NCBI GenBank assembly: GCA_046596625.1
Contig: JBKJMH010000044.1
Location: 1-56,699, forward strand
Direction of reading: 5' to 3'
From: Vicinamibacterales bacterium
GTDB taxonomy: Bacteria > Acidobacteriota > Vicinamibacteria > Vicinamibacterales > CAVVIG01
DNA length: 56,699 bases
Both the position numbers and the translations under genes were made by a program. Shown piece by piece: positions 28,795 to 41,767 of this stretch; position 1 is the first letter of the stretch; each line of letters starts with the position of its first letter. The notes below the pieces were generated by a model. That model was not told where the DNA came from. It was given only the letters and a program-made list of their open reading frames with translations, and did no database searches.

Positions 28795-30084
28795 ATGCCC
28801 GCGTTGCTCGACGACAGCCTGGTCATCGTCCTCGCCGGCGGCGCCGGCGAACGACTCTCGCCGCTCACGAAACATCGCGCAAAACCGGCTGTGTACTTCG
28901 GCGGACCGTATCGCATCATCGACTTCTCGCTCAGCAACTGCATCAACTCCGGGCTTCGCCGCATCTACATCGCGACGCAGTACAAGTCGTTGTCGCTGAA
29001 TCGTCATATCCGCATGGGCTGGAACGTGGTCTCGGAGGAACTCGGCGAGTTCATCGAGATCCTGCCGCCCCAGAAGCGCGTCGGTGAACACTGGTACCAG
29101 GGCACGGCGGACGCGGTCTACCAGAACCTCTACTCGATCATTCGCGAGAACCCGCGCTACGTCATCGTGCTGTCTGGCGACCACGTCTACAAGATGGACT
29201 ACTCGCGCATGCTCCGGTTCCATCAGGAGAGCGGCGCGGCCGCGACGCTGGCCGCCATCGAAGTGCCACTGCACGAAGCCACGGAGTTCGGCGTCGTCGC
29301 CATCGATGATCAGGAACGGATCACCGGCTTCCAGGAGAAGCCGAAGCAGCCGATCCCGATTCCGGGCTCGCCCGACGTGGCGCTGGCCTCGATGGGCGTC
29401 TACATCTTCGACACCGACGCGCTGGTGAAGGCCCTCGAGGAAGACGCGGTCCAGCCGACCAAGCACGACTTCGGCAAGGACATCATTCCGGCTCTCATCC
29501 ACAAGGCACCGGTCTACGCCTATCGTTTCTACGACGAGAACAAGAAGGCCTCGAAGTACTGGCGCGACGTCGGCACGCTCGACGCGTATTTCGAAGCGAA
29601 CATGGACCTCTGCCAGGTCAACCCGGAATTCAACCTCTACGATCCGGAATGGCCGCTGCGCACCTACCAGCCGCAAGCGCCGCCGGCGAAGTTCGTCTTC
29701 GCCGAGACCGGCCATCGCTGCGGCCAGGCACTGGACTCCATCGTCTCGCCCGGCTGTATCGTGTCCGGCAGCAGTATCTACGGCAGCGTGCTCTGCCCGA
29801 ATGTGCGGGTCCACAGCTTCAGCCATATCGAACAGTCGATCCTGATGCCGGGCGTCCGCGTCGGGCGGCACGCCCGCATCCGTCGCGCCATCATCGACCG
29901 CGACCTGCTTATTCCGCGGGGCGCGGTCATCGGCTACAACCTCGAAGAAGATCGGCGGCGGCACACCGTGACCGAGGGCGGTGTGGTGGTCGTCACCGCC
30001 GACGACGAACCGTTCATTGCGCCGCTCAGCGACGAGGCCTTGCGTTATGAGGCCGAAGCGGACCGGCGTGGCGCAGGAGTCTGA
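28795..30084 (+). CDS. glgC: Glucose-1-phosphate adenylyltransferase
   Basis: [42 protein letters not shown]...WYQGTADAV...[16 protein letters not shown] lies upstream. Confidence 0.9.
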
Positions 30085-30086
30085 CT

Positions 30087-31385
30087 GTGAAAATCACCCG
30101 AGTGCACGGCCGCGAGATCCTGGACTCACGCGGCAATCCGACCGTGGAAGTGGATGTCACCCTCGACGGGGGCGCGATGGGACGCGCAGCCGTTCCTTCA
30201 GGCGCCTCGACCGGTGAGCGCGAAGCGCTCGAACTGCGGGACGGCGACAAGGCGCGCTACCTCGGCAAGGGCGTCCGCCATGCGGTTGCGAACGTCAACG
30301 GCGAAATCGCCGCCGCGCTCGTCGGCCAGTCGTTCGATCAGCGCACGCTCGACGCCGCGATGATTGCGCTCGACGGCACGCCGACCAAGGCGCGCCTCGG
30401 GGCCAACGCCCTGCTCGGCGTCTCCATGGCCGCGCTGCGGGCCGAGGCGCTGTCCGGTGGGCGTGCGCTCTACACGCACATCGGCGCCCTGTACGGCACC
30501 AGCCGCTACACGCTGCCGGTGCCGATGATGAACATCCTGAACGGCGGCGCCCACGCGGACTCGAGCGTCGACTTCCAGGAATTCATGGTCATGCCGGTGG
30601 GCGCGTCGTCGTTCGCCGAAGCGCTCCGCACCGGCGCGGAAATCTTCCATGCCCTGCGCGGCATCCTGAAGGGGCGCGGCCAGTCGACCGGCGTCGGCGA
30701 CGAGGGCGGCTTCGCGCCGAACCTGAAGTCGAACCGCGAAGCGGTGGAGGTGGTGCTCGAAGCGATCGGGAAGGCCGGCCTGAAAGCCGGCCAAGACGTC
30801 TTCATCGCGCTCGACGTCGCGTCGAGCGAACTCTGGGCCGGCGGCGGACGCTACGTCTTCAAGAAGTCGAGCGAGCCCGAGCGCACGTCTGAACAGATGG
30901 TCGAGCTCTACGCCGACTGGATCCGGCAGTACCCGATCATCTCGATCGAGGACGGCATCGCCGAAGGCGACTGGACCGGTTGGCAGCAGTTGACGGAGGC
31001 CATCGGCGACAAGGTGCAACTGGTGGGCGACGACGTCTTCGTCACGAACCCGGAGATTCTCAAGCGCGGCATCGCGGACAAGGTGGCCAACGGCCTGCTG
31101 GTGAAGCTGAATCAGATCGGCACCGTCACCGAAACGCTCGATGCCGTGCGCATGGCCGCAGATGCCAACTACGCCACGATCATGTCGCACCGATCGGGCG
31201 AAACCGAGGATGCGACCATCGCTGACATGGCCGTGGGCACGGCCGCCGGCCAGATCAAGACCGGTTCGGCGAGCCGCACCGATCGCACCTGCAAGTACAA
31301 CCAGTTGCTGCGCATCGAAGAAGAACTCGGGTCGGCAGCGGTGTATGCCGGCCGTGGCGCCATCCGGGCTCTGGCTGGCCGCTGA
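30087..31385 (+). CDS. eno: Enolase
   Basis: (V)[23 protein letters not shown]...[15 protein letters not shown]...[11 protein letters not shown]...GQIKTGS. Confidence 0.95.
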
Positions 31386-31417
31386 CAGTTCGGAGGTCTG
31401 CGTTTCATCGAGGTGCT

Positions 31418-32164
31418 ATGTACAAGCTTGTGCTGCTCCGCCACGGCGAAAGCACGTGGAACAAGGAAAACCGCTTCACCGGCTGGACCGATGTCGACCT
31501 CTCGGACAAGGGCCGCGAGGAAGCGGCTGAAGCCGGCCGCCTGTTGCAGGCTGGCGGCTACGTGTTCGATCAGGCCTATGTCTCGTTGCTGAAGCGCGCC
31601 ATCCGCACGTTGTGGATCACACTCGACCAGCTCGATCAGATGTGGCTGCCGGTCGAGAAGAGCTGGCGCCTCAACGAACGTCATTACGGCGCCCTGCAGG
31701 GGCTGAACAAGGCGGAGACCGCGGCCCTGCACGGCGACGCGCAGGTGCTGGTGTGGCGGCGCAGCTACGACATCCCGCCGCCGCCGCTCACGCTCGATGA
31801 CGAACGCCATCCGGCGAAGGACCCGCGTTACGCCGGCCTCGACGCGGCGGACCTGCCGCTGACCGAGTCGCTGAAGGAAACGGTCGCACGGTTCCTGCCC
31901 TACTGGCACGGCACCATCGCGCCGGCCATCACCAGCGGCAAGCGCGTGATCGTTGCGGCGCACGGCAACAGCCTGCGTGCCCTGGTGAAGTACCTCGACG
32001 ACGTCTCGGAGTCGAAGATCGTCGAGCTCAACATTCCGACCGGTATCCCGCTGGTGTACGAACTGGACGCCGACCTGAAGCCGATTCGCCATTACTACCT
32101 CGGTGACGCGGCCGCGGCCGCCGCCGCCGCGGAACGCGTCAAGCAACAGGCGGCCTCCCGCTGA
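31418..32164 (+). CDS. gpmA: 2,3-bisphosphoglycerate-dependent phosphoglycerate mutase
   Basis: [29 protein letters not shown]...[12 protein letters not shown]...[10 protein letters not shown]. Confidence 0.95.
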
Positions 32165-32224: not shown

Positions 32225-33949
32225 ATGCGGTCATATATCGTCTACGTGCTCGGGATCGTCGCGCTGGTCATCCTGACGAGCGCGACCGGCTTCTACGCGG
32301 CTGAAATCGGCACGAACCAGAATCTCGACAGCTACGGCGATGCCCTGTGGTGGGCGATCGTCACCGTCACCACAATCGGCTATGGCGACATCTTCCCCGT
32401 TACCGTGGCGGGACGGTTCGTCGGCGCCTTCCTGATGTTCGCCGGCATCGGTGCGCTCGGCGTGTTCACGGCGTCCATCGCCGCCTACCTCATCAAGTTC
32501 GATCGGCTCGATGCCCTGCGCGTCAGGGGTATGCATCGCCACGTGGTGATCTGCGGCCTCGGCTCGACCGGTGCGCTGCTGACGCAAGCCTTCCAGCGCG
32601 ATGGCTACACGGTGCTGGCGATCGAGAAAGCCGAGGACAACCCGCGCCTCGACGCGGCTCGCGAGGCGGGGGCGGTCGTGCTGATTGGCGATGCCTCGCG
32701 GACGGAGGTCCTGCAACGGGCCCGAGTCGATAGGGCCGCGCACATCGTGATCGTCGCCGGCGCCGATGCGACGAACGTGGAGATTGCGGCGGCAGCGCGT
32801 GCCCTGGTGCACGACTCGGCGGCCAGCGTCTCGTGCGCGGCGCAGATCGAAGACCCTGAACTGTGGTACGCCCTGCGCAGCTGGGACGTCGGCACCCAGG
32901 ACCGCGTGAGGCTCGAGTTCTTCAACGTGACCGAGCTCGGTGCCCGCGCGCTGCTTGCGCGCCATTCGCCCTTCGCGGGAGTCGCCGACGCCGCTGCCGC
33001 CCCACCTCGCGTGCTCATCGTCGGCTCCGGCGCGCTCGGCCAGCACCTGATCGGGCACATGGTGCGGCAGTGGCAGGACGTCGAAGGCGAGACCAAGGCG
33101 CCCCTGCCGATCGCGCTGGTCGATGCTGACGTCGACCGCGTGACCCAGGACCTGCATCATCGCCACCCCGAGTTGCGCACACTCGCCGTAATCACCCCGT
33201 ATGCCCTGGATCTGCGTTCGACCACATTCCAGCGCGGCGCGTTCCTGTTCGACGACACCGGCCTCTGCGCGGTCACGCATGCATATGTCTGCGTCGAGGA
33301 CGAAGGGCTGGCCCTCTCCACGGCGCTGCTGCTGCTGAATCATCTCCGCCAGTACGGCGTGCACGTGATGGTGCGAACGAACCGCGAGGCCGGCCTGGCG
33401 GCGCTGCTGCGCGCGGTCGGCACCCAGGGTTCACGCGGCGTCTCCCACCTGCACGTGTTCAGCCTGCTCGAGCAGGCCTGCCGCCCGGAGTTCGTGCTTC
33501 GTGGCACCAATGAAGTGCTCGCGCGGGCGCTGCACCAGGACTACCTGTCACAGGCATCCCGCCATCAGAATCCGTCGGCTGTTCCGTGGGATGATTTGCC
33601 CGTCGACCTCAAGGAGTCGAATCGACGACAGGCCGATCACATCGCGACCAAGCTCGAAGCGGTGAGGTGCCACATCGTGCCGCTCACCGCGCTCGAAGGC
33701 GATGCCTTTGCGTTCGCTCCAGCCGAAGTGGAGCACCTGGCCGAGATGGAACACGAACGCTGGGTGGCGGAGCGCCGCGCGCAGGGCTGGACGCGCGGCC
33801 CTCGTGATCCGATACAGAAGACCAACCCCAGTCTGGTCTCCTGGGCCGAACTCGATGAGCCGGCTCGCGAGATGAACAGGGGTTCCGTGCGTCGACTGCC
33901 GTTCTTCCTGAATCGCGCGGGCTTCACCGCACACCGTGACAACGCATGA
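32225..33949 (+). CDS. 2TM K+ channel fused to an RCK/TrkA-N domain, a second Rossmann-like domain and tandem C-terminal RyR-like repeats
   Basis: Pore TVTTIGYGD (nt 32360-32386) is flanked by two TM helices. The RCK domain has VVICGLGSTGALL...IGDAS. The second glycine-rich loop is VLIVGSGALGQHL. The C-terminus has LARALHQDY...PWDDLPVDLKESNRRQADHI and VEHLAEMEHERWVAERRAQGWTRGPRD..KTNPSLVSWAELDEPAREMNR, matching the RyR-domain pattern E.LAe..HE.W....GW.yG......P.LvpW.eL. Confidence 0.75.
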   Translation: MRSYIVYVLGIVALVILTSATGFYAAEIGTNQNLDSYGDALWWAIVTVTTIGYGDIFPVTVAGRFVGAFLMFAGIGALGVFTASIAAYLIKFDRLDALRVRGMHRHVVICGLGSTGALLTQAFQRDGYTVLAIEKAEDNPRLDAAREAGAVVLIGDASRTEVLQRARVDRAAHIVIVAGADATNVEIAAAARALVHDSAASVSCAAQIEDPELWYALRSWDVGTQDRVRLEFFNVTELGARALLARHSPFAGVADAAAAPPRVLIVGSGALGQHLIGHMVRQWQDVEGETKAPLPIALVDADVDRVTQDLHHRHPELRTLAVITPYALDLRSTTFQRGAFLFDDTGLCAVTHAYVCVEDEGLALSTALLLLNHLRQYGVHVMVRTNREAGLAALLRAVGTQGSRGVSHLHVFSLLEQACRPEFVLRGTNEVLARALHQDYLSQASRHQNPSAVPWDDLPVDLKESNRRQADHIATKLEAVRCHIVPLTALEGDAFAFAPAEVEHLAEMEHERWVAERRAQGWTRGPRDPIQKTNPSLVSWAELDEPAREMNRGSVRRLPFFLNRAGFTAHRDNA

Positions 33950-35844
33950 GCAGCGAACACCCGTCTTCCCCACACCCGTCGCACCGGCATCGGCGACGCA
34001 GGCGCGTTCGACGGCCAGGCACTGGCCAGGCGCCTGGTCCGCTGCCGCTCGTGGTGGGCGTCACCGGTCACCGTGACCTTCGCCCCGAGGACCTGCCCGC
34101 ACTCGAAGGACTGGTGCGGCGCGTCATCAACGACGTGAAGGACGCGCACCCGCACACCCCGCTGTTGCTGCTATCGCCGCTCGCGGAAGGGAGCGACCGG
34201 CTGGTCGCTCGCGTCGCCCTCGAAGGTGGCGTGCGCCTGGTGGTACCGCTGCCGCTGCCGCTCGAACTGTACGAGCAGGACTTCGTCAGCGACGAGTCGC
34301 GTGCCGAGTTCCGCCGTCTGCTTGGCCTCGCCGAAAGTTCCTACGTGCTGCCGCTCATGCACGGCAACACCGACGAGGGCATCCGACAGTACGGTGACCA
34401 GCGGAACCGTCAGTACGCCCAGGTCGGCGCTCTCATCGCCAGGCAGAGTCAGGTGTTCCTCGCTCTCTGGGACGGCGCAAGCGATGCCGGCAACGACAAG
34501 GTCGGCGGAACCGCGGAAGTTGTCCGGTTCCGACTCGACGGGGTACCGCCAAGCTACGAGCCGACGTCGGCCAGCCCGCTCAGCGACTCGAGCAGCGGTT
34601 CGGTCTATCACCTGATCACGCCGCGCATCGGTCAGCCGCTGCCGCGGAAGGCGCTGACCTCGGAACTCGTGCTGCCCACTCGGCAGTCCGCCGCGTCGTT
34701 CGATGAACTTCAGGGGTGGATGGATCAGTTCAACGAAGATGCCTTACACTTCGACGCGTCGATGGCGCCGGCCCGCCTCACGAGCAAGTCGTATCTCCTG
34801 AACACCACGGAAGACGCGGTCGACGCGACAGCGCGCTCGCTGCCCGCCTCCGCACAGATGACCATGGAGCGTTACGCCGTGGCCGACGCCCTGGCGCTCC
34901 ATTTCGCCAGCCACGCCAGGGCTGCATCGAAGAAGCTCTTTCTCTGGGTGTTCGTGTCGGCGCTGTTCTTCAACCTGTTCCACTCGTTGCCGCACCCCCA
35001 CATTGCGGAACACCCGTCGCTCGGCGAGCGGCTCATCGCCGTTCCGTGGCTGCTGCTACTCTTCCTCGCATCGTCTATCGTCGCGAGCTACTGGATCCAT
35101 CGCGAGGCGACCGAGCAGGATTACCAGAACAAGCACCAGGACTATCGGGCACTGGCCGAAGCCCTGCGCATCCAGTTCTTCTGGCAGGTCGCCGGCGTGC
35201 AGGGTGATGTCGCCGACCATTACCTGCGGAAGCAGCGTGGCGCACTCGAGTGGATTCGCAACGCGCTCCGGGCCTGGGATGCCGAGTCGTCGGCGAGCGA
35301 GGCGCGCGAGGCGGTCGGTGGGTTCGTGCCGGACCGGCTGGCCTACGTCGCCAGGAACTGGGTCAGCGAGCAGCGCAACTACTTCGCCTCGAAGGCGCGC
35401 CGTGAACAGGCGACGCTCGAAGAGGAAGAGAAGAAGATCGAGTGGCTGGTGCGCATCAGCGTGGTGTTGGCCCTGCTCCTCGCAGTGGTGCTGACGGTCC
35501 CGCTCATCATTCCCATCCACGCGCTCGAAGGGGTGAAGCACTGGGTCGAAGAGCCGTGGACGCACGGCATCGTGATGATCGTCATCGTGACGCTGGCCGT
35601 GGTGGCCGGCCTGCGCCACGGCTACAACCAGCAGATGGCGCGCTCCGAGCATGCGAAGCAGTTCGGGCGCATGAGCGAGCTCTTCGATGCGGGGCAGACG
35701 CACCTGTCGGCGCAACTGGACGCCGGACACGTGGAACAGGCGGCGGCGCTGCTGCGCGAGCTGGGCCAGGAAGCGCTGGAGGAGAACGGTGACTGGGTGT
35801 TGCTGCACCGCGAGCGTCCGCTCGAAGTGCCGCACTCGGGCTGA
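33946..35844 (+). CDS. SLOG-like (LOG/YpsA/DprA-type Rossmannoid) N-terminal domain fused to two 2TM modules (SLATT-like)
   Basis: The ATG overlaps the channel-gene stop (ATGA). The N-terminal domain has VVGVTGHRDL, SPLAEGSDRLVA, VVPLPLP and KVGGTAEVV (compare the LOG-type GGxGTxxE). TM pairs lie at about aa 330-385 and 500-556. Each pair is preceded by an amphipathic Y..A......K/R helix (RYAVADALALHFASHARAASKK; RNYFASKARREQATLEEEEKK). Confidence 0.6.
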   Translation: MSSEHPSSPHPSHRHRRRRRVRRPGTGQAPGPLPLVVGVTGHRDLRPEDLPALEGLVRRVINDVKDAHPHTPLLLLSPLAEGSDRLVARVALEGGVRLVVPLPLPLELYEQDFVSDESRAEFRRLLGLAESSYVLPLMHGNTDEGIRQYGDQRNRQYAQVGALIARQSQVFLALWDGASDAGNDKVGGTAEVVRFRLDGVPPSYEPTSASPLSDSSSGSVYHLITPRIGQPLPRKALTSELVLPTRQSAASFDELQGWMDQFNEDALHFDASMAPARLTSKSYLLNTTEDAVDATARSLPASAQMTMERYAVADALALHFASHARAASKKLFLWVFVSALFFNLFHSLPHPHIAEHPSLGERLIAVPWLLLLFLASSIVASYWIHREATEQDYQNKHQDYRALAEALRIQFFWQVAGVQGDVADHYLRKQRGALEWIRNALRAWDAESSASEAREAVGGFVPDRLAYVARNWVSEQRNYFASKARREQATLEEEEKKIEWLVRISVVLALLLAVVLTVPLIIPIHALEGVKHWVEEPWTHGIVMIVIVTLAVVAGLRHGYNQQMARSEHAKQFGRMSELFDAGQTHLSAQLDAGHVEQAAALLRELGQEALEENGDWVLLHRERPLEVPHSG

Positions 35845-35880: not shown

Positions 35881-37260
35881 CTAGGCCGACGGGGTCTGGG
35901 CCGCGGCCAGCCAGGCGGCCGTCACTTCCGACGCGGTCGAGAAGCGGGCGTTGGCGTCGGACAGGATGCAGCGCATGATCATCGCCGCAGCCTCGGCCCC
36001 GAGGTCGGGGCGCTCGGTGGCGACGTCGGACGGCTTGGTCATGAGCATGCGGCCGAGCAACTGCGGAAATGACTCCGCTGGATACGGCGGCCGGCCGGTG
36101 GCCATGTAGTACATCAGGGCGCCGATCGTGAACACGTCGGCACGCTGATCCGCCGGGTTGCCCATCAGCAGCTCCGGCGCCACGTACGACAGCTCGTGCG
36201 GTGCGGCCTGTCCACGCAGCGTGGCCTCGTTCATCGTCGACAGCAGATCCTGCATGCCGCCGATGCCCGCGCTCGAAATCGCGAGGCGCTCTTCCTTCGC
36301 TGGTTCCCGCACCACCCGGATGATCTCGGGGTGAAGCCCCGAGATGAAGCCGCCGTGCACGTGCACCGCCGCCGTCGCCTCGCTCAACTCGCGCACGAAC
36401 TGCGTCAGCGTCTTGATGGCCAGTCGTCCGTCCGAGCGGACGAGTTCGCCGAGGCTCACGCCAGCCAGCAGGTCGGTGACCACGTACATCATCTCCGCCG
36501 TCTCGCCGAAGTCGCGAACGTGGATGATGTTCGGGTGCATCACTTGCAGGGCGCGCGCCTCGCGCAGGAACCGCGCGCGAATGGCTTCCTTGTTGTCCTT
36601 CTCGGTCGGCCGGTAGACGCGGACCGCAACCGGGCTGCCGAGCATCCGATGCTCGCCGGCGTAGACGACGCTGCCAAATCGACCGATGGCGAGCACTTTC
36701 GTCAGGTCGTAGTTGCCCACGACCAGAGGCGATTCCCTGGACGGTTCGAGCAAGGCCGGCGGAGGTGCAGCCGCTGCGGGTACGGCCGCAGGGGCCACGA
36801 GAGCGAGAGCCGCGGGCGCGCCGCCGCCGTCGGGAATCAGGTCGCCGTCGGTGCCGGGCCGGCGCAGGTGTGCATTGACCCCCTGGACGAGACGCTCGAT
36901 GTGCTGGTCAATCGGCTGAGCAATGGCATCGAACCAGTGCTGCGAGCTGATGAAATACTCCATCGTGCGGGTCGGCATCACGTTCTCGATGCGGACCGGC
37001 ATGAGCGACAGACCCTTGTGGACGGCGCGCTCGACCTCGCGCTGGACCTGGACCGACTTGTTGGAGGCTTCGCTGAAGACCAGCAGCATGAGCCGCGAGC
37101 CTTCGATGCCGTCGATGATCGACTCGGCCCACGGCACGCCGGGCACGATGTCGCGTGGGGCAATCCAGCACGGAATACCGCGCTGCTCGAGCCCCGCGCA
37201 AATCGCGTTCGAGACAACCACGTCCTTCGACGCGTAACTGATGAAGACCACGTGCGCCAT
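35881..37260 (-). CDS. TIR domain fused through an Ala/Pro linker to a degenerate Ser/Thr-kinase-like (pseudokinase) domain
   Basis: The TIR domain has HVVFISYASKD...GIPCWIAPRD...LMLLVFSEASNKSVQVQREVERA (candidate catalytic Glu in REVE) and ...LMPVRI. The kinase fold has IGRFGSVVY, HPNIIHV, YVAPELL and DVFTIGALMYYMATGRPPY. Its catalytic motifs are altered: VAVR (K to R), ISGLHPEII in place of HRDLKPxNI, and SAG in place of DFG. The start is set at the ATG at 37258-37260 because the longer ORF would overlap the upstream terminator. Confidence 0.75.
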   Translation of the reverse strand: MAHVVFISYASKDVVVSNAICAGLEQRGIPCWIAPRDIVPGVPWAESIIDGIEGSRLMLLVFSEASNKSVQVQREVERAVHKGLSLMPVRIENVMPTRTMEYFISSQHWFDAIAQPIDQHIERLVQGVNAHLRRPGTDGDLIPDGGGAPAALALVAPAAVPAAAAPPPALLEPSRESPLVVGNYDLTKVLAIGRFGSVVYAGEHRMLGSPVAVRVYRPTEKDNKEAIRARFLREARALQVMHPNIIHVRDFGETAEMMYVVTDLLAGVSLGELVRSDGRLAIKTLTQFVRELSEATAAVHVHGGFISGLHPEIIRVVREPAKEERLAISSAGIGGMQDLLSTMNEATLRGQAAPHELSYVAPELLMGNPADQRADVFTIGALMYYMATGRPPYPAESFPQLLGRMLMTKPSDVATERPDLGAEAAAMIMRCILSDANARFSTASEVTAAWLAAAQTPSA

Positions 37261-37290
37261 GAGGAAAGCGCCCCGATCATATCGCATCGA

Positions 37291-37329
37291 AAACAAAAAA
37301 AAGGCCGCCGGGTTGAACCCGGCAGCCTT
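37291..37329 (-). terminator. Rho-independent terminator downstream of the AGE-STAS gene
   Basis: The minus strand reads AAGGCUGCCGGG-uucaa-CCCGGCGGCCUUUUUUUUGUUUU. This is a 10-bp stem with one mismatch followed by a U-run. Confidence 0.75.
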
Positions 37330-37356
37330 CTCTCGGTTCTTCTGCGAAGAACGCTG

Positions 37357-39585
37357 TTAGTCGACGAAAGTGAGGCTTTCGCCGAATTCGGTCGCGTTGA
37401 GCGAGTCCTTGACTCCCTGACTCGCGCCGATGACCTGAACGTCCTCATCGGTCCGCAGCTTCTGCTTCCCGAAGATGAGAGCGCGGATTGCGGCCGGCGT
37501 CAGCGTCTTGAGGTCCTTCACGCGAATGATGAGCGTCTCGGGCTGTGCGGCGATGACTTCCTGCAGCTTGGCCTGCAGAGTCGGCAGTGCCATGTGGTCA
37601 GCATCGCCAGCGAGGGTCAGCGTGGCCACGCCCTTGTCCACCGTGCAGTGGGCGGAGAAGTGGGTCAGTCCTTCGGTCGGCGCGATTCGGACCACGATCT
37701 TCACCTGGCCATCCGCCTCCGGGATGGTGACGGTGAGGTTCGCCGCATCGAAGTCGTTGTATTCTTTGCCGTCAACCGTGACCGACTCGATCTTGATGCT
37801 GCCCTTCGGCAGCATGTCAGGCGCCACGCGCAGAATGTTGTCCTTGAACCCGCCCGGCTTCGGCTTGAAGTGCAGGTCGAGCGGCTGCTTGGTGATCAGC
37901 AGGTTGGTGTAGACCGCCGCCAGGTAGCACAGCTCGAACGAGTGGTAGCCGCTCATCGAGTGGCTGCCCTTGTTGCGTTCGGTGCCAAGCAGGTACGGCA
38001 GGCCGTTGGCCAGCACGTTGAAGTAGACCGCGCCCGAATCGTGGTCGAGGAAGAAGGCGCTGTAGAACGCCGACGACTCGCGCGCCTGCTTGAGGTACTC
38101 CGGCTTCTTCAGCGAGCCGTGCAGGATCAGGTAGGCCAGGATGCCCTGTTCCTGCTGCCACCATGCCTTACGGTCGTGGAAGGCGAAGCGGTGAATCGAC
38201 TGGCCCTCCGGCAGGGCGCGCTCCACAACGTCGTACCAGCCGCCGCGCTGCGGGTCGCCGCCGTGCTTGGGCATAAGACCGGCGATCTTCTCGGCCAGCA
38301 CCACGTAGCTGTCGTCCTGCTTCGCATTCACCATGCGCATCAGATTCCAGGCGATCTTGAGGTTGTGACCGACCACCGCGCGGTTCTGCTGCCAGCCCCA
38401 GGTACGGTCGGCGCTCCAGTCCTCGTGGAACTTCTCCTGGACGAAGGCGCTGTTGTCGTAGTCCGGGAAGCGCGTCGCGATGGTGGTTGCCGTGTCGATG
38501 AGCATCTCGAGGTGCTCGGGTTCGTTCGTCGCCAGCGCCAGGTTGATCAGGTACGCCGGGGCGTGATCGCCGACGGAATTCCAGTTCTTCTTGCCGCAGT
38601 TGCGACCGAGTGACTCGGCCTTCGGATTGAACGTGACCGGGTCGATGTGCGAAAAGTAGCCGCCGCCTTCGTAGTCGCGGTAGTACTTGTTGAACATGTT
38701 CAACGTGCGGTCGATGTCCTTGCGGATCTTCGGGTCGCCGGTGATGCGGAAGGTCTGGGTCGGGCCGGCCAGCGCGTAAATCTGCTCGTAGGCCGGGATG
38801 GCGTCCCAGTCGTCACCAAACTCCGACGACAGCAACTTGCGCTCGTGCGCGGCGGCATTGCTGGAGCGGCGCATGCCGGGCACTTCCGCCATGTCCGAGT
38901 TCAGAACCTTCTTGCCCTTCTGCTCGGCAAAGTCGACGGCGTGGTACCAGTAGCAGGTGTTCTCGACCGTGTCGACCGCGCAGAAGTGCTCGCGCAGGTA
39001 GTCGCTGCCCTTCTCGGCGGCTTCGAGGAAGCGTTCGTCGCCGGTCAACAGGTAGGCCGACGCGAAGCCGAAGATCAGGCGCGAGATGGTATCGGTCTCC
39101 TGGCGGGTCGCTTCGATTTTGCGACCGTAGAGGTCGAGCATCGTGCGGTAGTTGCGGTAGTCGACCGGGCCGTCGCCGAACTGGGCGCGGAAGTAGAAAT
39201 TGCCCAGTTCCTGGATCTGGTGAACCCACCAGTCCGGCTTTTCGAACACGAATTCCGTCGGGCCGCGGCCCACGAACACAATGTGCTGCGCCTCGAGTGC
39301 CATCGGCACGTCGGGGTAGAACACACCGTACGAGTATAGGAACCGGCCGGTCTGCAGCATGTCGCGCATCTGCCCGGTGCAGTCGATATACGACTCTCCG
39401 AGGTTGCGCGCCAGCTCGGCGTAGCACGCGCCCGAGTAGCGAATCTGGAATTCCCGGCCATCCGACGTGGCCACGCGGAAGCCGTTACGGTCGGCATCCA
39501 CGCCGGTGACGTAGCCGGCAACCGTATCCGAGAATGCAAACCCTGTCCCTGTCGTCGTATCCGAAAGCGAGTTCTTCACGTCCAT
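37357..39585 (-). CDS. N-acylglucosamine-2-epimerase (AGE)-superfamily (alpha/alpha)6 protein with a beta-sandwich and a C-terminal STAS domain
   Basis: The AGE-type features are ISRLIFGFASAYLLTGDERFLEAAEKGSDYL, GGYFSHID and VGHNLKIAWNLMRM (the GH..E/K.aW pattern). The C-terminal roughly 100 aa are STAS-like (VATLTLAGDADHMALPTLQAKLQEVIAAQPETLIIRVKDLKTLTPAAIRALIF). Confidence 0.6.
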   Translation of the reverse strand: MDVKNSLSDTTTGTGFAFSDTVAGYVTGVDADRNGFRVATSDGREFQIRYSGACYAELARNLGESYIDCTGQMRDMLQTGRFLYSYGVFYPDVPMALEAQHIVFVGRGPTEFVFEKPDWWVHQIQELGNFYFRAQFGDGPVDYRNYRTMLDLYGRKIEATRQETDTISRLIFGFASAYLLTGDERFLEAAEKGSDYLREHFCAVDTVENTCYWYHAVDFAEQKGKKVLNSDMAEVPGMRRSSNAAAHERKLLSSEFGDDWDAIPAYEQIYALAGPTQTFRITGDPKIRKDIDRTLNMFNKYYRDYEGGGYFSHIDPVTFNPKAESLGRNCGKKNWNSVGDHAPAYLINLALATNEPEHLEMLIDTATTIATRFPDYDNSAFVQEKFHEDWSADRTWGWQQNRAVVGHNLKIAWNLMRMVNAKQDDSYVVLAEKIAGLMPKHGGDPQRGGWYDVVERALPEGQSIHRFAFHDRKAWWQQEQGILAYLILHGSLKKPEYLKQARESSAFYSAFFLDHDSGAVYFNVLANGLPYLLGTERNKGSHSMSGYHSFELCYLAAVYTNLLITKQPLDLHFKPKPGGFKDNILRVAPDMLPKGSIKIESVTVDGKEYNDFDAANLTVTIPEADGQVKIVVRIAPTEGLTHFSAHCTVDKGVATLTLAGDADHMALPTLQAKLQEVIAAQPETLIIRVKDLKTLTPAAIRALIFGKQKLRTDEDVQVIGASQGVKDSLNATEFGESLTFVD

Positions 39586-39625
39586 CTCTTGGCGCTCCTT
39601 GGTCCAAAGGGTGCAATTCCCGTTG

Positions 39626-41767
<2,142 letters not shown>

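Follow-up and report, generated by a model that had tools for sequence, protein, structure and literature searches.

A SLOG protein with four transmembrane helices encoded beside a K+ channel with RyR repeats and a TIR gene: a probable signal-gated membrane effector

Related systems

Among the closest described systems is "SLOG and 4TM", which a 2025 preprint from the Sorek laboratory lists among putative Thoeris effectors without verification (Tables S1 and S2, 10.64898/2025.12.03.692087). Neither of the two such systems tried in E. coli, one from Streptomyces sp. GKU 895 and one from Ca. Nitrospira nitrosa, defended against phage (same preprint). The protein which we describe here, SLOG-4TM, is alike by described architecture: it has a SLOG domain and four transmembrane (TM) helices and lies beside a TIR gene. 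The preprint candidate was likewise proposed to be a membrane effector activated by a TIR signal. In the preprint text and supplement which we searched, we found neither a RyR-domain K+ channel partner nor tandem SLATT-like modules for it.

Several other effectors share parts of this arrangement. In type VII Thoeris the SLATT effector ThsH responds to TIR-made cADPR, and the effector of type X Thoeris is an ion channel. ThsH, the SLATT effectors of CBASS and the Pfam families DUF4231/SLATT_1-6 have in common with SLOG-4TM a helix-preceded two-TM hairpin beside TIR genes; it is also predicted for ThsH and the CBASS proteins, as for SLOG-4TM, that nucleotide binding makes them breach or gate the membrane. 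SLOG-4TM differs from them by its two hairpins per chain and its dedicated N-terminal SLOG domain, and it lies at or below the Pfam cut-offs. In ThsH, cADPR is thought to be bound between the SLATT protomers, without any SLOG domain. ThsA (SIR2-SLOG), the effector of type I Thoeris, does use SLOG as the 3'cADPR sensor: there the SLOG domain receives a cyclic ADPR isomer made by a TIR protein, and this activates the fused effector. In our case the effector part would be a membrane module instead of a SIR2 NADase, and the SLOG domain is structurally nearer to YpsA and DprA.

Two eukaryotic channels offer an analogy. TRPM2 binds ADP-ribose through an N-terminal SLOG/MHR1-2 region fused to a cation channel, and the cADPR-modulated RyR channels carry R12 RyR repeats, which resemble the two tandem RyR repeats of the K+ channel in our window. 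The logic is similar in that ligands of the ADPR type are tied both to a membrane protein with a SLOG domain and to a channel with RyR repeats. The membrane domains themselves have no relation to each other: our proteins have SLATT-like hairpins and a 2TM K+ pore, the eukaryotic channels 6TM TRP and RyR pores. TRPM2, TRPM4 and TRPM8 align in Foldseek through the SLOG region with low TM scores, and there is no evidence for direct descent. According to a recent report (PMC13232231), proteins with the RyR domain PF02026 bind or cleave 2'/3'cADPR.

Structure of the SLOG-4TM protein

The window is the whole stretch of 56,699 nt which was analysed, from a Vicinamibacterales bacterium; its relevant features are given in Table 1. 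The open reading frame has an ATG start and coincides exactly with the one proposed in an earlier note made from the sequence alone. A word-indexed search finds more than 1,400 homologs, and an exhaustive search finds 10,146 clusters at 50% identity, 3,060 of them with E <= 1e-30; nearly all are full length. The AF2 model of the whole protein has a pLDDT of 90.7 and a pTM of 0.88. Since the homologs are numerous and mostly full length and the model is confident, this is a real gene and not a chance high-GC reading frame. The basic leader was also correctly noted (HRHRRRRRVRR, residues 13-23); it shows no conservation among the aligned homologs, and residues 1-26 have a pLDDT below 50.

Table 1. 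Features of the SLOG-4TM gene and its two neighbours in the window
Feature	Residues	Position (nt)	Strand	Evidence and remarks
K+ channel with TrkA_N/RCK and two tandem RyR repeats (upstream partner)		32225-33949	+	Pfam Ion_trans_2, TrkA_N and RyR, all above cut-off
First RyR repeat	409-480	33449-33664	+	
Second RyR repeat	482-568	33668-33928	+	
SLOG-4TM, complete CDS	632 aa + stop codon	33946-35844	+	ORF list, full-length homologs, AF2 model
N-terminal basic leader	1-30	33946-34035	+	Variable, disordered; contains the basic run
Cytoplasmic SLOG domain, YpsA/DprA-like	about 31-246	34036-34683	+	Foldseek, viral SLOG matches, sub-threshold YAcAr, invariant columns
Helical linker, SLOG domain to module 1	about 249-300	34690-34845	+	AF2 helices 249-268, 274-285, 289-297
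Membrane module 1	301-416	34846-35193	+	Hydropathy, AF2, DUF4231 and SLATT_3 matches; pre-TM helix, TM1 (34933-34992), short outer loop, TM2 (35017-35097), cytoplasmic helix
Membrane module 2	462-592	35329-35721	+	Hydropathy, AF2, sub-cut-off SLATT_1; pre-TM helix, TM3 (35431-35508), short outer loop, TM4 (35551-35628), cytoplasmic helix
C-terminal nearly invariant motif G.EAL.ENGDWVLLHRERPLEVP	607-629	35764-35832	+	Homolog alignment
TIR domain fused to kinase-fold domain		35881-37296	-	Pfam TIR_2, Pkinase; convergent to SLOG-4TM gene
TIR domain	14-136	37257-36889	-	
Kinase-fold domain	198-462	36705-35911	-	

The N-terminal region had been proposed to be of the LOG/YpsA/DprA type, and residues about 31-246 are indeed confidently predicted to adopt a Rossmannoid SLOG fold: Foldseek comparison with the PDB gives only members of the SLOG superfamily. 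The best match of the AF2 model is B. subtilis YpsA (2nx2, E 2.9e-5, TM 0.64 on target), followed by ShosA, DprA, the LOG-like TM1055, the N-termini of TRPM2/4/8 and a LOG; the SLOG domain of ThsA is absent among the best 50 PDB matches. Among viral proteins the structural matches, with TM reaching 0.83, are to DprA-like proteins, to "YspA cpYpsA-related SLOG" and to DUF2493. At the level of profiles, Pfam YAcAr gives sub-threshold matches in 18 of 36 homologs and at most 21.7 bits with the family consensus (cut-off 28.2); none of the curated SLOG HMMs reaches its own cut-off with this family.

All the motifs quoted in the earlier note are present, GGT included. The SLOG motifs are GVTGHRD (38-44), LSPLAEGSDR (76-85), VPLP (100-103), ALWDG (173-177) and GGT (187-189), and most of them are nearly invariant in 78 aligned homologs, which have 40-88% identity to the window protein. 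However the catalytic Glu of the LOG motif PGGxGTxxE is not conserved in the alignment, which places the domain with the YpsA/DprA type and not with the LOG type. It shares three features with the YpsA/YAcAr/DprA clade, its best structural match: the loop that follows strand 1 is polar, a helix cap has a G.A.G.D-type motif (SPLAEGADR), and GGT is present. Those proteins are soluble, whereas here the domain is fused to four TM helices. Conserved polar residues cluster in the SLOG loops (H42, R43, D44, E81, D84, R85, E110, D112, D176, T189 and R227), and F262, N263 and D265 are conserved in the linker.

In the membrane half, hydropathy gives four TM helices, at residues 330-349, 358-384, 496-531 and 536-561. 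They form two hairpins (nt about 34933-35097 and about 35431-35628), in agreement with those noted before. The Y..A helix which had been described ahead of each pair is also found: in the AF2 model long helices (301-347 and 462-521) precede the hairpins and continue into their first TM helix, with the patterns ERYAVADALALHF and RNYFASKARRE. The outer loops have 9-13 residues and the cytoplasmic ends are flanked by basic residues. The cytoplasmic helix of module 1, DYQNKxQDYRALAEALRIQFFW, is invariant; near the C-terminus G607, E609, L611, D616, W617, L620, H621, R622, R624, P625 and P629 are invariant or nearly so.

Both modules may be described as SLATT-like: their best Pfam matches are SLATT families, below or at threshold. 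Of 36 homologs, 22 have a DUF4231/SLATT match in module 1 and 6 have a SLATT_3 match. One homolog (P0039) is above the Pfam gathering score, with 26.3 bits against 24.7; the window protein has 15.4 bits with the SLATT family, below that cut-off. For the consensus of module 2 the best match is SLATT_1 (E 5e-4, 20.5 bits, below the 26.3 cut-off). SLATT-annotated viral proteins recur as structural matches of the TM half, without significance (E >= 0.3). These matches agree with the earlier idea of SLATT-like modules in tandem. A true SLATT duplication is not proven; when the profiles of the two modules are compared with each other, the probability is only 10%.

Gene neighbours and distribution

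The start codon of SLOG-4TM and the stop codon of the channel gene upstream of it overlap (gcATGAgc, 33946-33949), and the two genes are translationally coupled. The channel has the selectivity filter TVTTIGYGD, and its RyR repeats retain the His/Trp(Tyr) ligand residues. The pair recurs in Acidobacteriota, Verrucomicrobiota, Abditibacteriota, Armatimonadota and others. On the other side, the TIR gene of the window is convergent to SLOG-4TM and not co-operonic. Its kinase-fold domain lacks the catalytic residues: the VAIK Lys is replaced by Arg, HRD by ISG and DFG by SAG, as judged by PknB alignment and by eye.

The family is found in many phyla, where it is unannotated. We sampled the neighbourhoods of 78 species-level loci from at least 10 phyla. 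The nearest TIR gene is no more than 500 bp away in 23 loci and no more than 5 kb away in 36, but at 5-10 kb in only one; the position aligned with Glu87 is kept in 52 of 55 neighbouring TIRs. RyR-domain genes were found in 17 loci, 16 of them within 500 bp and the other at about 1.3 kb; in the close ones the product is usually a K+ channel with two RyR repeats, translationally coupled as in the window, and overlap of the start codon is frequent. Stand-alone RyR neighbours at other loci retain all four RyDEP residues. Altogether 43 loci have a TIR or RyR neighbour. In Acidobacteriota and Verrucomicrobiota, separate look-ups also gave TIR partners, K+ channel-RyR partners or both. The conservation of these neighbours lends strong support to the earlier suggestion of a conflict or signalling locus.

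Alternative explanations and proposed mechanism

That TIR and RyR-channel genes lie nearby by coincidence, and that the protein does something unrelated in the membrane, for example as a transporter or structural protein, seems to us very improbable. Weak Pfam matches to UbiA, TauE, CitMHS and SpoIIM would favour it; all of them are below significance, and no transporter family exceeds its threshold. A match to a known transporter family is what the earlier note had named as contrary to its proposal. The concentration of TIR and RyR genes within 500 bp, the frequent overlap of start codons and the recurrence across phyla with varied partner architectures also speak against coincidence. An enzymatic SLOG domain, for example a N-glycosidase of nucleotides or ADPR derivatives or another signal processor, which makes or destroys the signal while the 4TM part is a mere anchor, is unlikely too. 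The many conserved polar residues do lie in loops typical of SLOG active sites, but the LOG Glu is not conserved and the closest structures belong to the non-catalytic YpsA and DprA clades. Furthermore the membrane half is conserved equally with the SLOG half and has invariant cytoplasmic motifs (DYRALAE..R..FW and GDWVLLHRERP), as one would expect of a functional module more than of an anchor.

A housekeeping role is possible, if doubtful. SLOG-4TM would then be a nucleotide-regulated protein of membrane signalling or ion homeostasis and not an immune or suicide effector: its SLOG domain would sense a metabolite of the cell itself, such as NAD+, ADPR or AMP, the TIRs would be one input among several, and the 4TM part would modulate ion flux or regulate co-encoded channels, with a shift in membrane potential or stress dormancy as the result. 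The very large size of the family, with motifs invariant across phyla, agrees with such a role, as does the stable synteny with glycolysis and glycogen genes in relatives. In 35 of the 78 loci no TIR or RyR partner was detected, and housekeeping genes adjoin (dUTPase, FBPase, urocanase, PRPP synthetase). Family members are virtually absent from 2.9 million viral contigs and PADLOC gives no match; together with its synteny and vertical conservation, this sets the gene apart from typical mobile defence systems. Ion channels of differing architecture recur nearby, either K+ channel-RCK-RyR or a 292-aa Ion_trans channel in Ignavibacteriota. The "SLOG and 4TM" candidates without defence in E. coli point the same way. 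However the partner TIRs are often typical conflict sensors (TIR-NB-ARC-TPR, TIR-TPR, a caspase-like neighbour, ThsB_TIR matches), SLATT and SLOG are so far known mainly in conflict systems, and the neighbours differ by lineage, as they do in defence loci.

SLOG-4TM is probably a signal-gated membrane effector, because its gene adjoins TIR enzymes and the K+ channel-RyR gene in many bacteria. We lean somewhat towards the whole reading, in which an effector gated by a TIR signal works beside a RyR-gated K+ channel. The TIR-pseudokinase would be both sensor and signal generator. SLOG-4TM would sit in the inner membrane, with its cytoplasmic YpsA/DprA-like domain sensing a small nucleotide, most likely a NAD+-derived product of the ADP-ribose type made by the neighbouring TIR protein. 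Sensing would control the two hairpins, which may oligomerise or open and alter membrane permeability. The co-translated K+ channel may answer the same signal through its RyR repeats; as this domain class is reported to bind 2'/3'cADPR, one signal would open two ion-flux routes. In other genomes stand-alone RyR proteins with an intact glycosidase dyad could end the signal. The "SLOG and 4TM" architecture itself was already listed (10.64898/2025.12.03.692087); the new element is its linkage with the RyR channel. The two routes would lead to depolarisation and loss of K+, and these to growth arrest, dormancy or abortive infection.

The SLOG head and the membrane half

The SLOG-4TM protein, encoded between a K+ channel gene and a convergent TIR gene, is modelled confidently by AF2 on an alignment (A1) of 78 homologs (mean pLDDT 90.7, pTM 0.88). 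Its N-terminal head has strands at residues 35-41, 73-76, 97-102, 131-134 and 170-175 with helices between them: by AF2 and Foldseek it is a three-layered alpha/beta Rossmannoid fold with a central parallel sheet, as in SLOG domains. B. subtilis YpsA (2nx2) is the only Foldseek match in the PDB below E 1e-3 (E 2.9e-5, TM 0.64 on the target). Next in rank are ShosA, several DprA structures, the LOG-like TM1055, the N-terminal regions of TRPM2/4/8 and a type II LOG, all of them members of the SLOG superfamily. Among predicted viral structures the best matches, reaching TM 0.83, are DprA-like, 'YspA cpYpsA-related SLOG' and DUF2493 proteins. The SLOG-like N-terminal domain proposed in the earlier note is thus borne out by the AF2 fold and by its best structural match; on the model it is an uncurated YpsA/DprA-like SLOG family.

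The sequence also has the polar, glycine-rich loop after strand 1 and the GGxGT-like motif which mark SLOG domains, where the glycine motif touches the nucleotide: G38, T40, G41, H42, R43 and D44 in the loop are nearly invariant in the 78 sequences, as are G187 and G188, while T189 is invariant. All the motifs that had been quoted (GVTGHRD, LSPLAEGSDR, VPLP, ALWDG and KVGGTAEVV) are found, and most are nearly invariant among the homologs, which are 40-88% identical to the window protein. The likeness of KVGGTAEVV to the LOG motif PGGxGTxxE did not hold: the position after GGT is variable (consensus GGTAxxVRF). A LOG-type enzyme was rejected because the catalytic Glu of this motif is not conserved in the family; a LOG structure ranks 45th among the Foldseek PDB matches (E 0.39). 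None of the curated SLOG HMMs (YAcAr, DUF1273/YpsA, DprA, LOG, LSDAT and SLOG clusters) reaches its cut-off. YAcAr is the only one matched, in 18 of 36 homologs (best E 7e-5); it gives 21.7 bits for the family consensus, with a cut-off of 28.2. The window protein itself has no Pfam SLOG match, and PDB sequence searches with the single sequence and the family profile gave nothing useful. The basic leader HRHRRRRRVRR is present at residues 13-23; its sequence differs among homologs and it is disordered in the model.

Hydropathy places four transmembrane helices at residues 330-349, 358-384, 496-531 and 536-561, the two hairpin pairs that had been claimed, in matching positions. The outer loops which join the paired helices are short, acidic or His-rich and variable in length, and the flanks are basic: the positive-inside rule predicts a cytoplasmic location for the SLOG domain, the region between the modules and the C-terminus. 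Two cytoplasmic motifs are invariant among the homologs, DYQNKxQDYRALAE..R.QFFW after TM2 and GDWVLLHRERPLEVP at the C-terminus. Three homologs (P0055, P0072 and P0076; alignment columns about 428-500) have His/Ala/Glu-rich insertions of ~30-75 residues in the TM1-TM2 outer loop, which may be metal-binding or periplasmic sensing elements.

Modelled alone, the membrane half is all-helical (pLDDT 92.9). Module 1 (residues 301-416) and module 2 (residues 462-592) each have a long cytoplasmic helix running into a TM helix, which a short loop joins to a second, returning TM helix; further cytoplasmic helices follow. This is the SLATT layout, a 2-TM hairpin after a cytoplasmic helix, found twice (helix 301-347 with TM2 368-391, helix 462-521 with TM4 537-564). 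DUF4231 is the founding SLATT family. It matches module 1 in 22 of 36 homologs, with 15.4 bits in the window protein, 24.3 in the family consensus and 26.3 in homolog P0039, the only one above the Pfam gathering cut-off of 24.7. SLATT_3 matches module 1 in 6 of 36 homologs (consensus 23.4 bits, cut-off 26.3). The best Pfam match of the module 2 consensus is SLATT_1 (E 5e-4), with 20.5 bits, below the cut-off of 26.3. When the membrane half is compared with viral models by Foldseek, six of the top 50 matches are annotated as SLATT, all of them insignificant (E >= 0.3). Alignment of the two module profiles by hhalign is weak (10% probability, E 0.003), and topologically equivalent.

'SLATT-like, tandem' is therefore the best description of the membrane half: module 1 is a borderline SLATT member; the membership of module 2 and the duplication are unproven. 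Of the tandem SLATT-like hairpins in the earlier note, the layout stands and the duplication does not yet, in view of the hhalign result. Its general interpretation of the protein is supported by YpsA as best structural match and SLATT as best Pfam match, with SLATT significance as the caveat. It had also named a known transporter family as a possible contrary result; no such family reaches significance for the TM region, and the transporter reading was dropped for this reason. A CBASS S_4TM effector was rejected because there is no Pfam match. One homolog is directly followed by an independent tandem-SLATT protein with DUF4231 and SLATT_1 but no SLOG domain; its profile similarity to the SLOG-4TM family is not significant.

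Features of the window and of loci around homologs (L0xx); partners of distant homologs come from look-ups
Feature	Locus	Coordinates	Strand	Remarks
K+ channel	Window	32225-33949	+	TVTTIGYGD filter, TrkA_N/RCK, C-terminal RyR; upstream, overlaps SLOG-4TM start
SLOG-4TM CDS	Window	33946-35844	+	632 aa; ORF list; genuine gene
TIR + kinase fold	Window	35881-37296	-	Convergent, 36 bp downstream of SLOG-4TM; Pfam
Terminator-like hairpin	Window	37296-37334	-	Strong; 18 pairs + T-run
Flanking genes	Window	28795-32164, 37357-41767		glgC-like NTP transferase, enolase, phosphoglycerate mutase, GlcNAc-2-epimerase-like/STAS protein, isoamylase
Stand-alone RyR	L061	11890-12180		94-144 aa (all six)
Stand-alone RyR	L069	1015-1311
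Stand-alone RyR	L072	11968-12249
Stand-alone RyR	L032	8548-8832
Stand-alone RyR	L034	9188-9622
Stand-alone RyR	L053	7524-7922
Ion_trans-type channel	L039	11861-12736		Ignavibacteriota; ~290 aa, no RyR; 28 bp downstream of homolog
Ion_trans-type channel	L046	11804-12670		As L039
AAA-ATPase-RyR	L042	2546-4648		701 aa; adjoining homolog
TIR-NB-ARC-TPR-TIR STAND	L035	11856-16514		1553 aa; adjoining homolog
SLOG-4TM paralogs	L032	6829-8535, 9935-11692		Flank stand-alone RyR gene + TIR gene
SLOG-4TM paralogs	L083	9974-11737, 11744-13213
Tandem-SLATT protein	L078	11762-12856		365 aa; DUF4231 (52-140), SLATT_1 (213-257)
43% identical homolog				Partners kinase-TIR + TPR-S/cyclase
Second distant homolog				Partner TIR
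Third distant homolog				Partner K+ channel-RyR
Verrucomicrobiia homolog				Partners ThsB_TIR protein + K+ channel-RyR
Further distant homolog				Partners TIR + K+ channel-RyR + caspase + TIR-STAND

The channel and TIR partners

The start codon of the SLOG-4TM gene shares bases with the stop of the channel gene (ATGA), which implies translational coupling. The RyR region of the channel (Pfam RyR 49.1 bits, cut-off 27.4) consists of two tandem repeats, an R12-like pair at residues 409-480 and 482-568. A preprint (May 2026, PMC13232231) shows that proteins with RyR domains (PF02026) use H75, W78, H100 and D117 to bind or cleave 2'/3'cADPR, and that the R12 domain of animal RyRs resembles them. 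Aligned with the reference protein RyDEP, the channel repeats keep the His and the Trp/Tyr, with Asn in place of H100 and D117, which suggests that they bind a ligand without cleaving it. The stand-alone RyR neighbours which were aligned (L061, L069, L072 and L032) keep all four ligand and catalytic residues H, W, H and D; the stand-alone proteins are candidate signal-degrading or signal-sequestering regulators. PADLOC has no match for the window channel, and its RyR region gave a single weak tblastn match in phage genomes. In the titles and abstracts of the literature we found no paper on a bacterial RyR-domain K+ channel tied to TIR genes.

In the TIR gene the kinase fold has lost the Lys of VAIK (now Arg) and the Asp of HRD and DFG (now ISG and SAG), as judged from an alignment to PknB and by eye; it is therefore a pseudokinase, which probably serves the TIR domain as sensor or scaffold. 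Of 55 neighbouring TIR domains, 52 have Glu in the column of Glu87, which from general knowledge of TIR NADases we take to be the catalytic Glu; it stands inside an FxSY...D / S...S.....E pattern. Judged by this column, the catalytic Glu expected of a Thoeris TIR is retained; a BLASTP comparison with a published Thoeris type III TIR produced no alignment for the window TIR. The hairpin beside this gene ends exactly at its listed TTG start, which points to the ATG at residue 13 (MAHVVFISY...) as the probable start, the gene probably having its own promoter region.

Neighbourhoods and spread of the family

We have counted neighbours in 78 species-level loci. Of these, 36 have a TIR gene within 5 kb (23 of them within 500 bp), and only one has it at 5-10 kb; with the modules fused to a SLOG domain, this is an association of the SLATT type, by fusion with or proximity to SMODS, SLOG or TIR signalling domains. 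An RyR-domain gene is found within 500 bp in 16 loci: 11 channel fusions, five stand-alone proteins and one AAA-RyR, since one locus holds both a fusion and a stand-alone protein. In one further locus the RyR protein, also stand-alone, is encoded some 1.3 kb away. At least one of the two partners, TIR or RyR, is present in 43 of the 78 loci, and both are in 10. The loci without either partner are mostly from Ignavibacteriota, Kapaibacteria and Bacteroidota and have housekeeping neighbours. The Ion_trans-type channels in two Ignavibacteriota loci indicate that linkage to ion channels recurs with a different channel architecture. In the window the three-gene module sits amid carbohydrate-metabolism genes (glycolysis, glycogen); relatives share this synteny, in contrast to a typical defence island.

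The family is very large. A word-indexed search gave more than 1,400 homologs, every one labelled 'hypothetical'; searched exhaustively with a profile, the family amounts to 10,146 clusters at 50% identity (E <= 1e-3), 3,060 of them with E <= 1e-30. Nearly all members have 560-650 aa and match SLOG-4TM from end to end. The gene is present in at least 573 species-level genomes. The nearest relatives are in Acidobacteriota/Vicinamibacterales; other hosts include Verrucomicrobiota, Planctomycetota, Armatimonadota, Abditibacteriota, Chloroflexota, Ignavibacteriota/Kapaibacteria, Bacteroidota, Spirochaetia, Firmicutes (Pelotomaculum) and Proteobacteria. A contig filed as a 'Bifidobacterium breve' MAG (CALQBJ020000001.1) has a protein 88% identical to the Acidobacteriota-like SLOG-4TM, with K+ channel-RyR and TIR-kinase neighbours as in the window; it is almost certainly mis-binned. 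Ten long homologs (690-884 aa) had no TIR/RyR or other informative fusion. SLOG-4TM has no match in PADLOC or NCBIfam, and 2.9 million viral contigs contain only one partial match to the family.

SLOG and SLATT were reportedly defined by Burroughs et al. in 2015. Established components of TIR, CBASS and Thoeris signalling include SLOG sensors and SLATT membrane effectors. According to a preprint which catalogues TIR systems (December 2025, 10.64898/2025.12.03.692087) type I Thoeris uses SLOG as its 3'cADPR receptor, the type VII SLATT effectors ThsH respond to canonical cADPR, and the type X effector is an ion channel. Among its putative effectors is also 'SLOG and 4TM', of which two representatives gave no defence in E. 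coli. Its two TIR sequences had one insignificant BLAST match in our loci; a look-up of homologs of these '4TM SLOG' TIRs gave no exact protein, or nothing at all, and one contig examined for that system had no effector. The architecture class is thus already known: the name SLATT implies association with SLOG, and 'SLOG and 4TM' is a listed, unverified Thoeris candidate. The features that set the present case apart, and give clear handles for experiments, are the hairpins in tandem, an uncurated family of great size and, most of all, RyR-domain proteins and K+ channels as recurrent partners. A K+ channel with tandem RyR repeats as partner is described neither in this preprint nor in PMC13232231; the stand-alone RyR proteins which keep the cADPR-glycosidase dyad and recur beside homologs are part of this novelty.

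A possible messenger-gated module

We moderately favour a TIR-signal-gated SLOG-4TM effector which works with the RyR-gated K+ channel. The TIR-pseudokinase would detect a trigger and produce an NAD+-derived messenger. Its binding by the SLOG domain would make the tandem SLATT-like hairpins oligomerise or open, and the RyR repeat pair would bind the same messenger and open the co-translated channel; depolarisation and loss of K+ would follow. We infer this ligand, gating and outcome from a fold, topology, conservation and linkage which are directly apparent. As in Thoeris, a TIR gene lies beside a putative effector with a candidate signal-binding domain, SLOG being a plausible receptor; the genomic context is not that of a defence island, as PADLOC finds nothing for SLOG-4TM or the channel and the neighbours are housekeeping genes.

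The main rival, a physiological and non-suicidal signalling module, is less probable but has a real chance. It agrees with the size of the family, the vertical conservation of the gene, its housekeeping neighbourhoods, its near absence from viruses, the lack of PADLOC matches and the negative defence tests of 'SLOG and 4TM' candidates in E. coli. An enzymatic role of the SLOG domain, of which the LOG type has been rejected, is improbable. We consider it most improbable that the linkage to TIR and RyR genes is a coincidence.

The TIR-signal-gated effector may be part of something wider. Tentatively, it may belong to a widespread, chromosomally stable module in which an ADP-ribose-type messenger made by TIR gates both the tandem-SLATT SLOG protein and the RyR-pair K+ channel, a prokaryotic counterpart, and possibly the source, of ADPR-TRPM2 and cADPR-RyR gating. 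Its role could be the control of membrane potential or dormancy, rather than phage defence alone. RyR domains were reported as cyclic ADPR binders only in 2026. At this locus such a domain could let a product of TIR control an ion channel, in a bacterial and genetically tractable setting. This is relevant to the long debate about whether ryanodine receptors respond to cADPR, and by what means, and to how SLOG-gated TRPM channels arose. Even if SLOG-4TM were merely another Thoeris-like effector, it would add a two-effector, membrane-targeting variant. In either case a family of ~10,000 clusters at 50% identity in many phyla, with no annotation and no Pfam model, gains a testable function.
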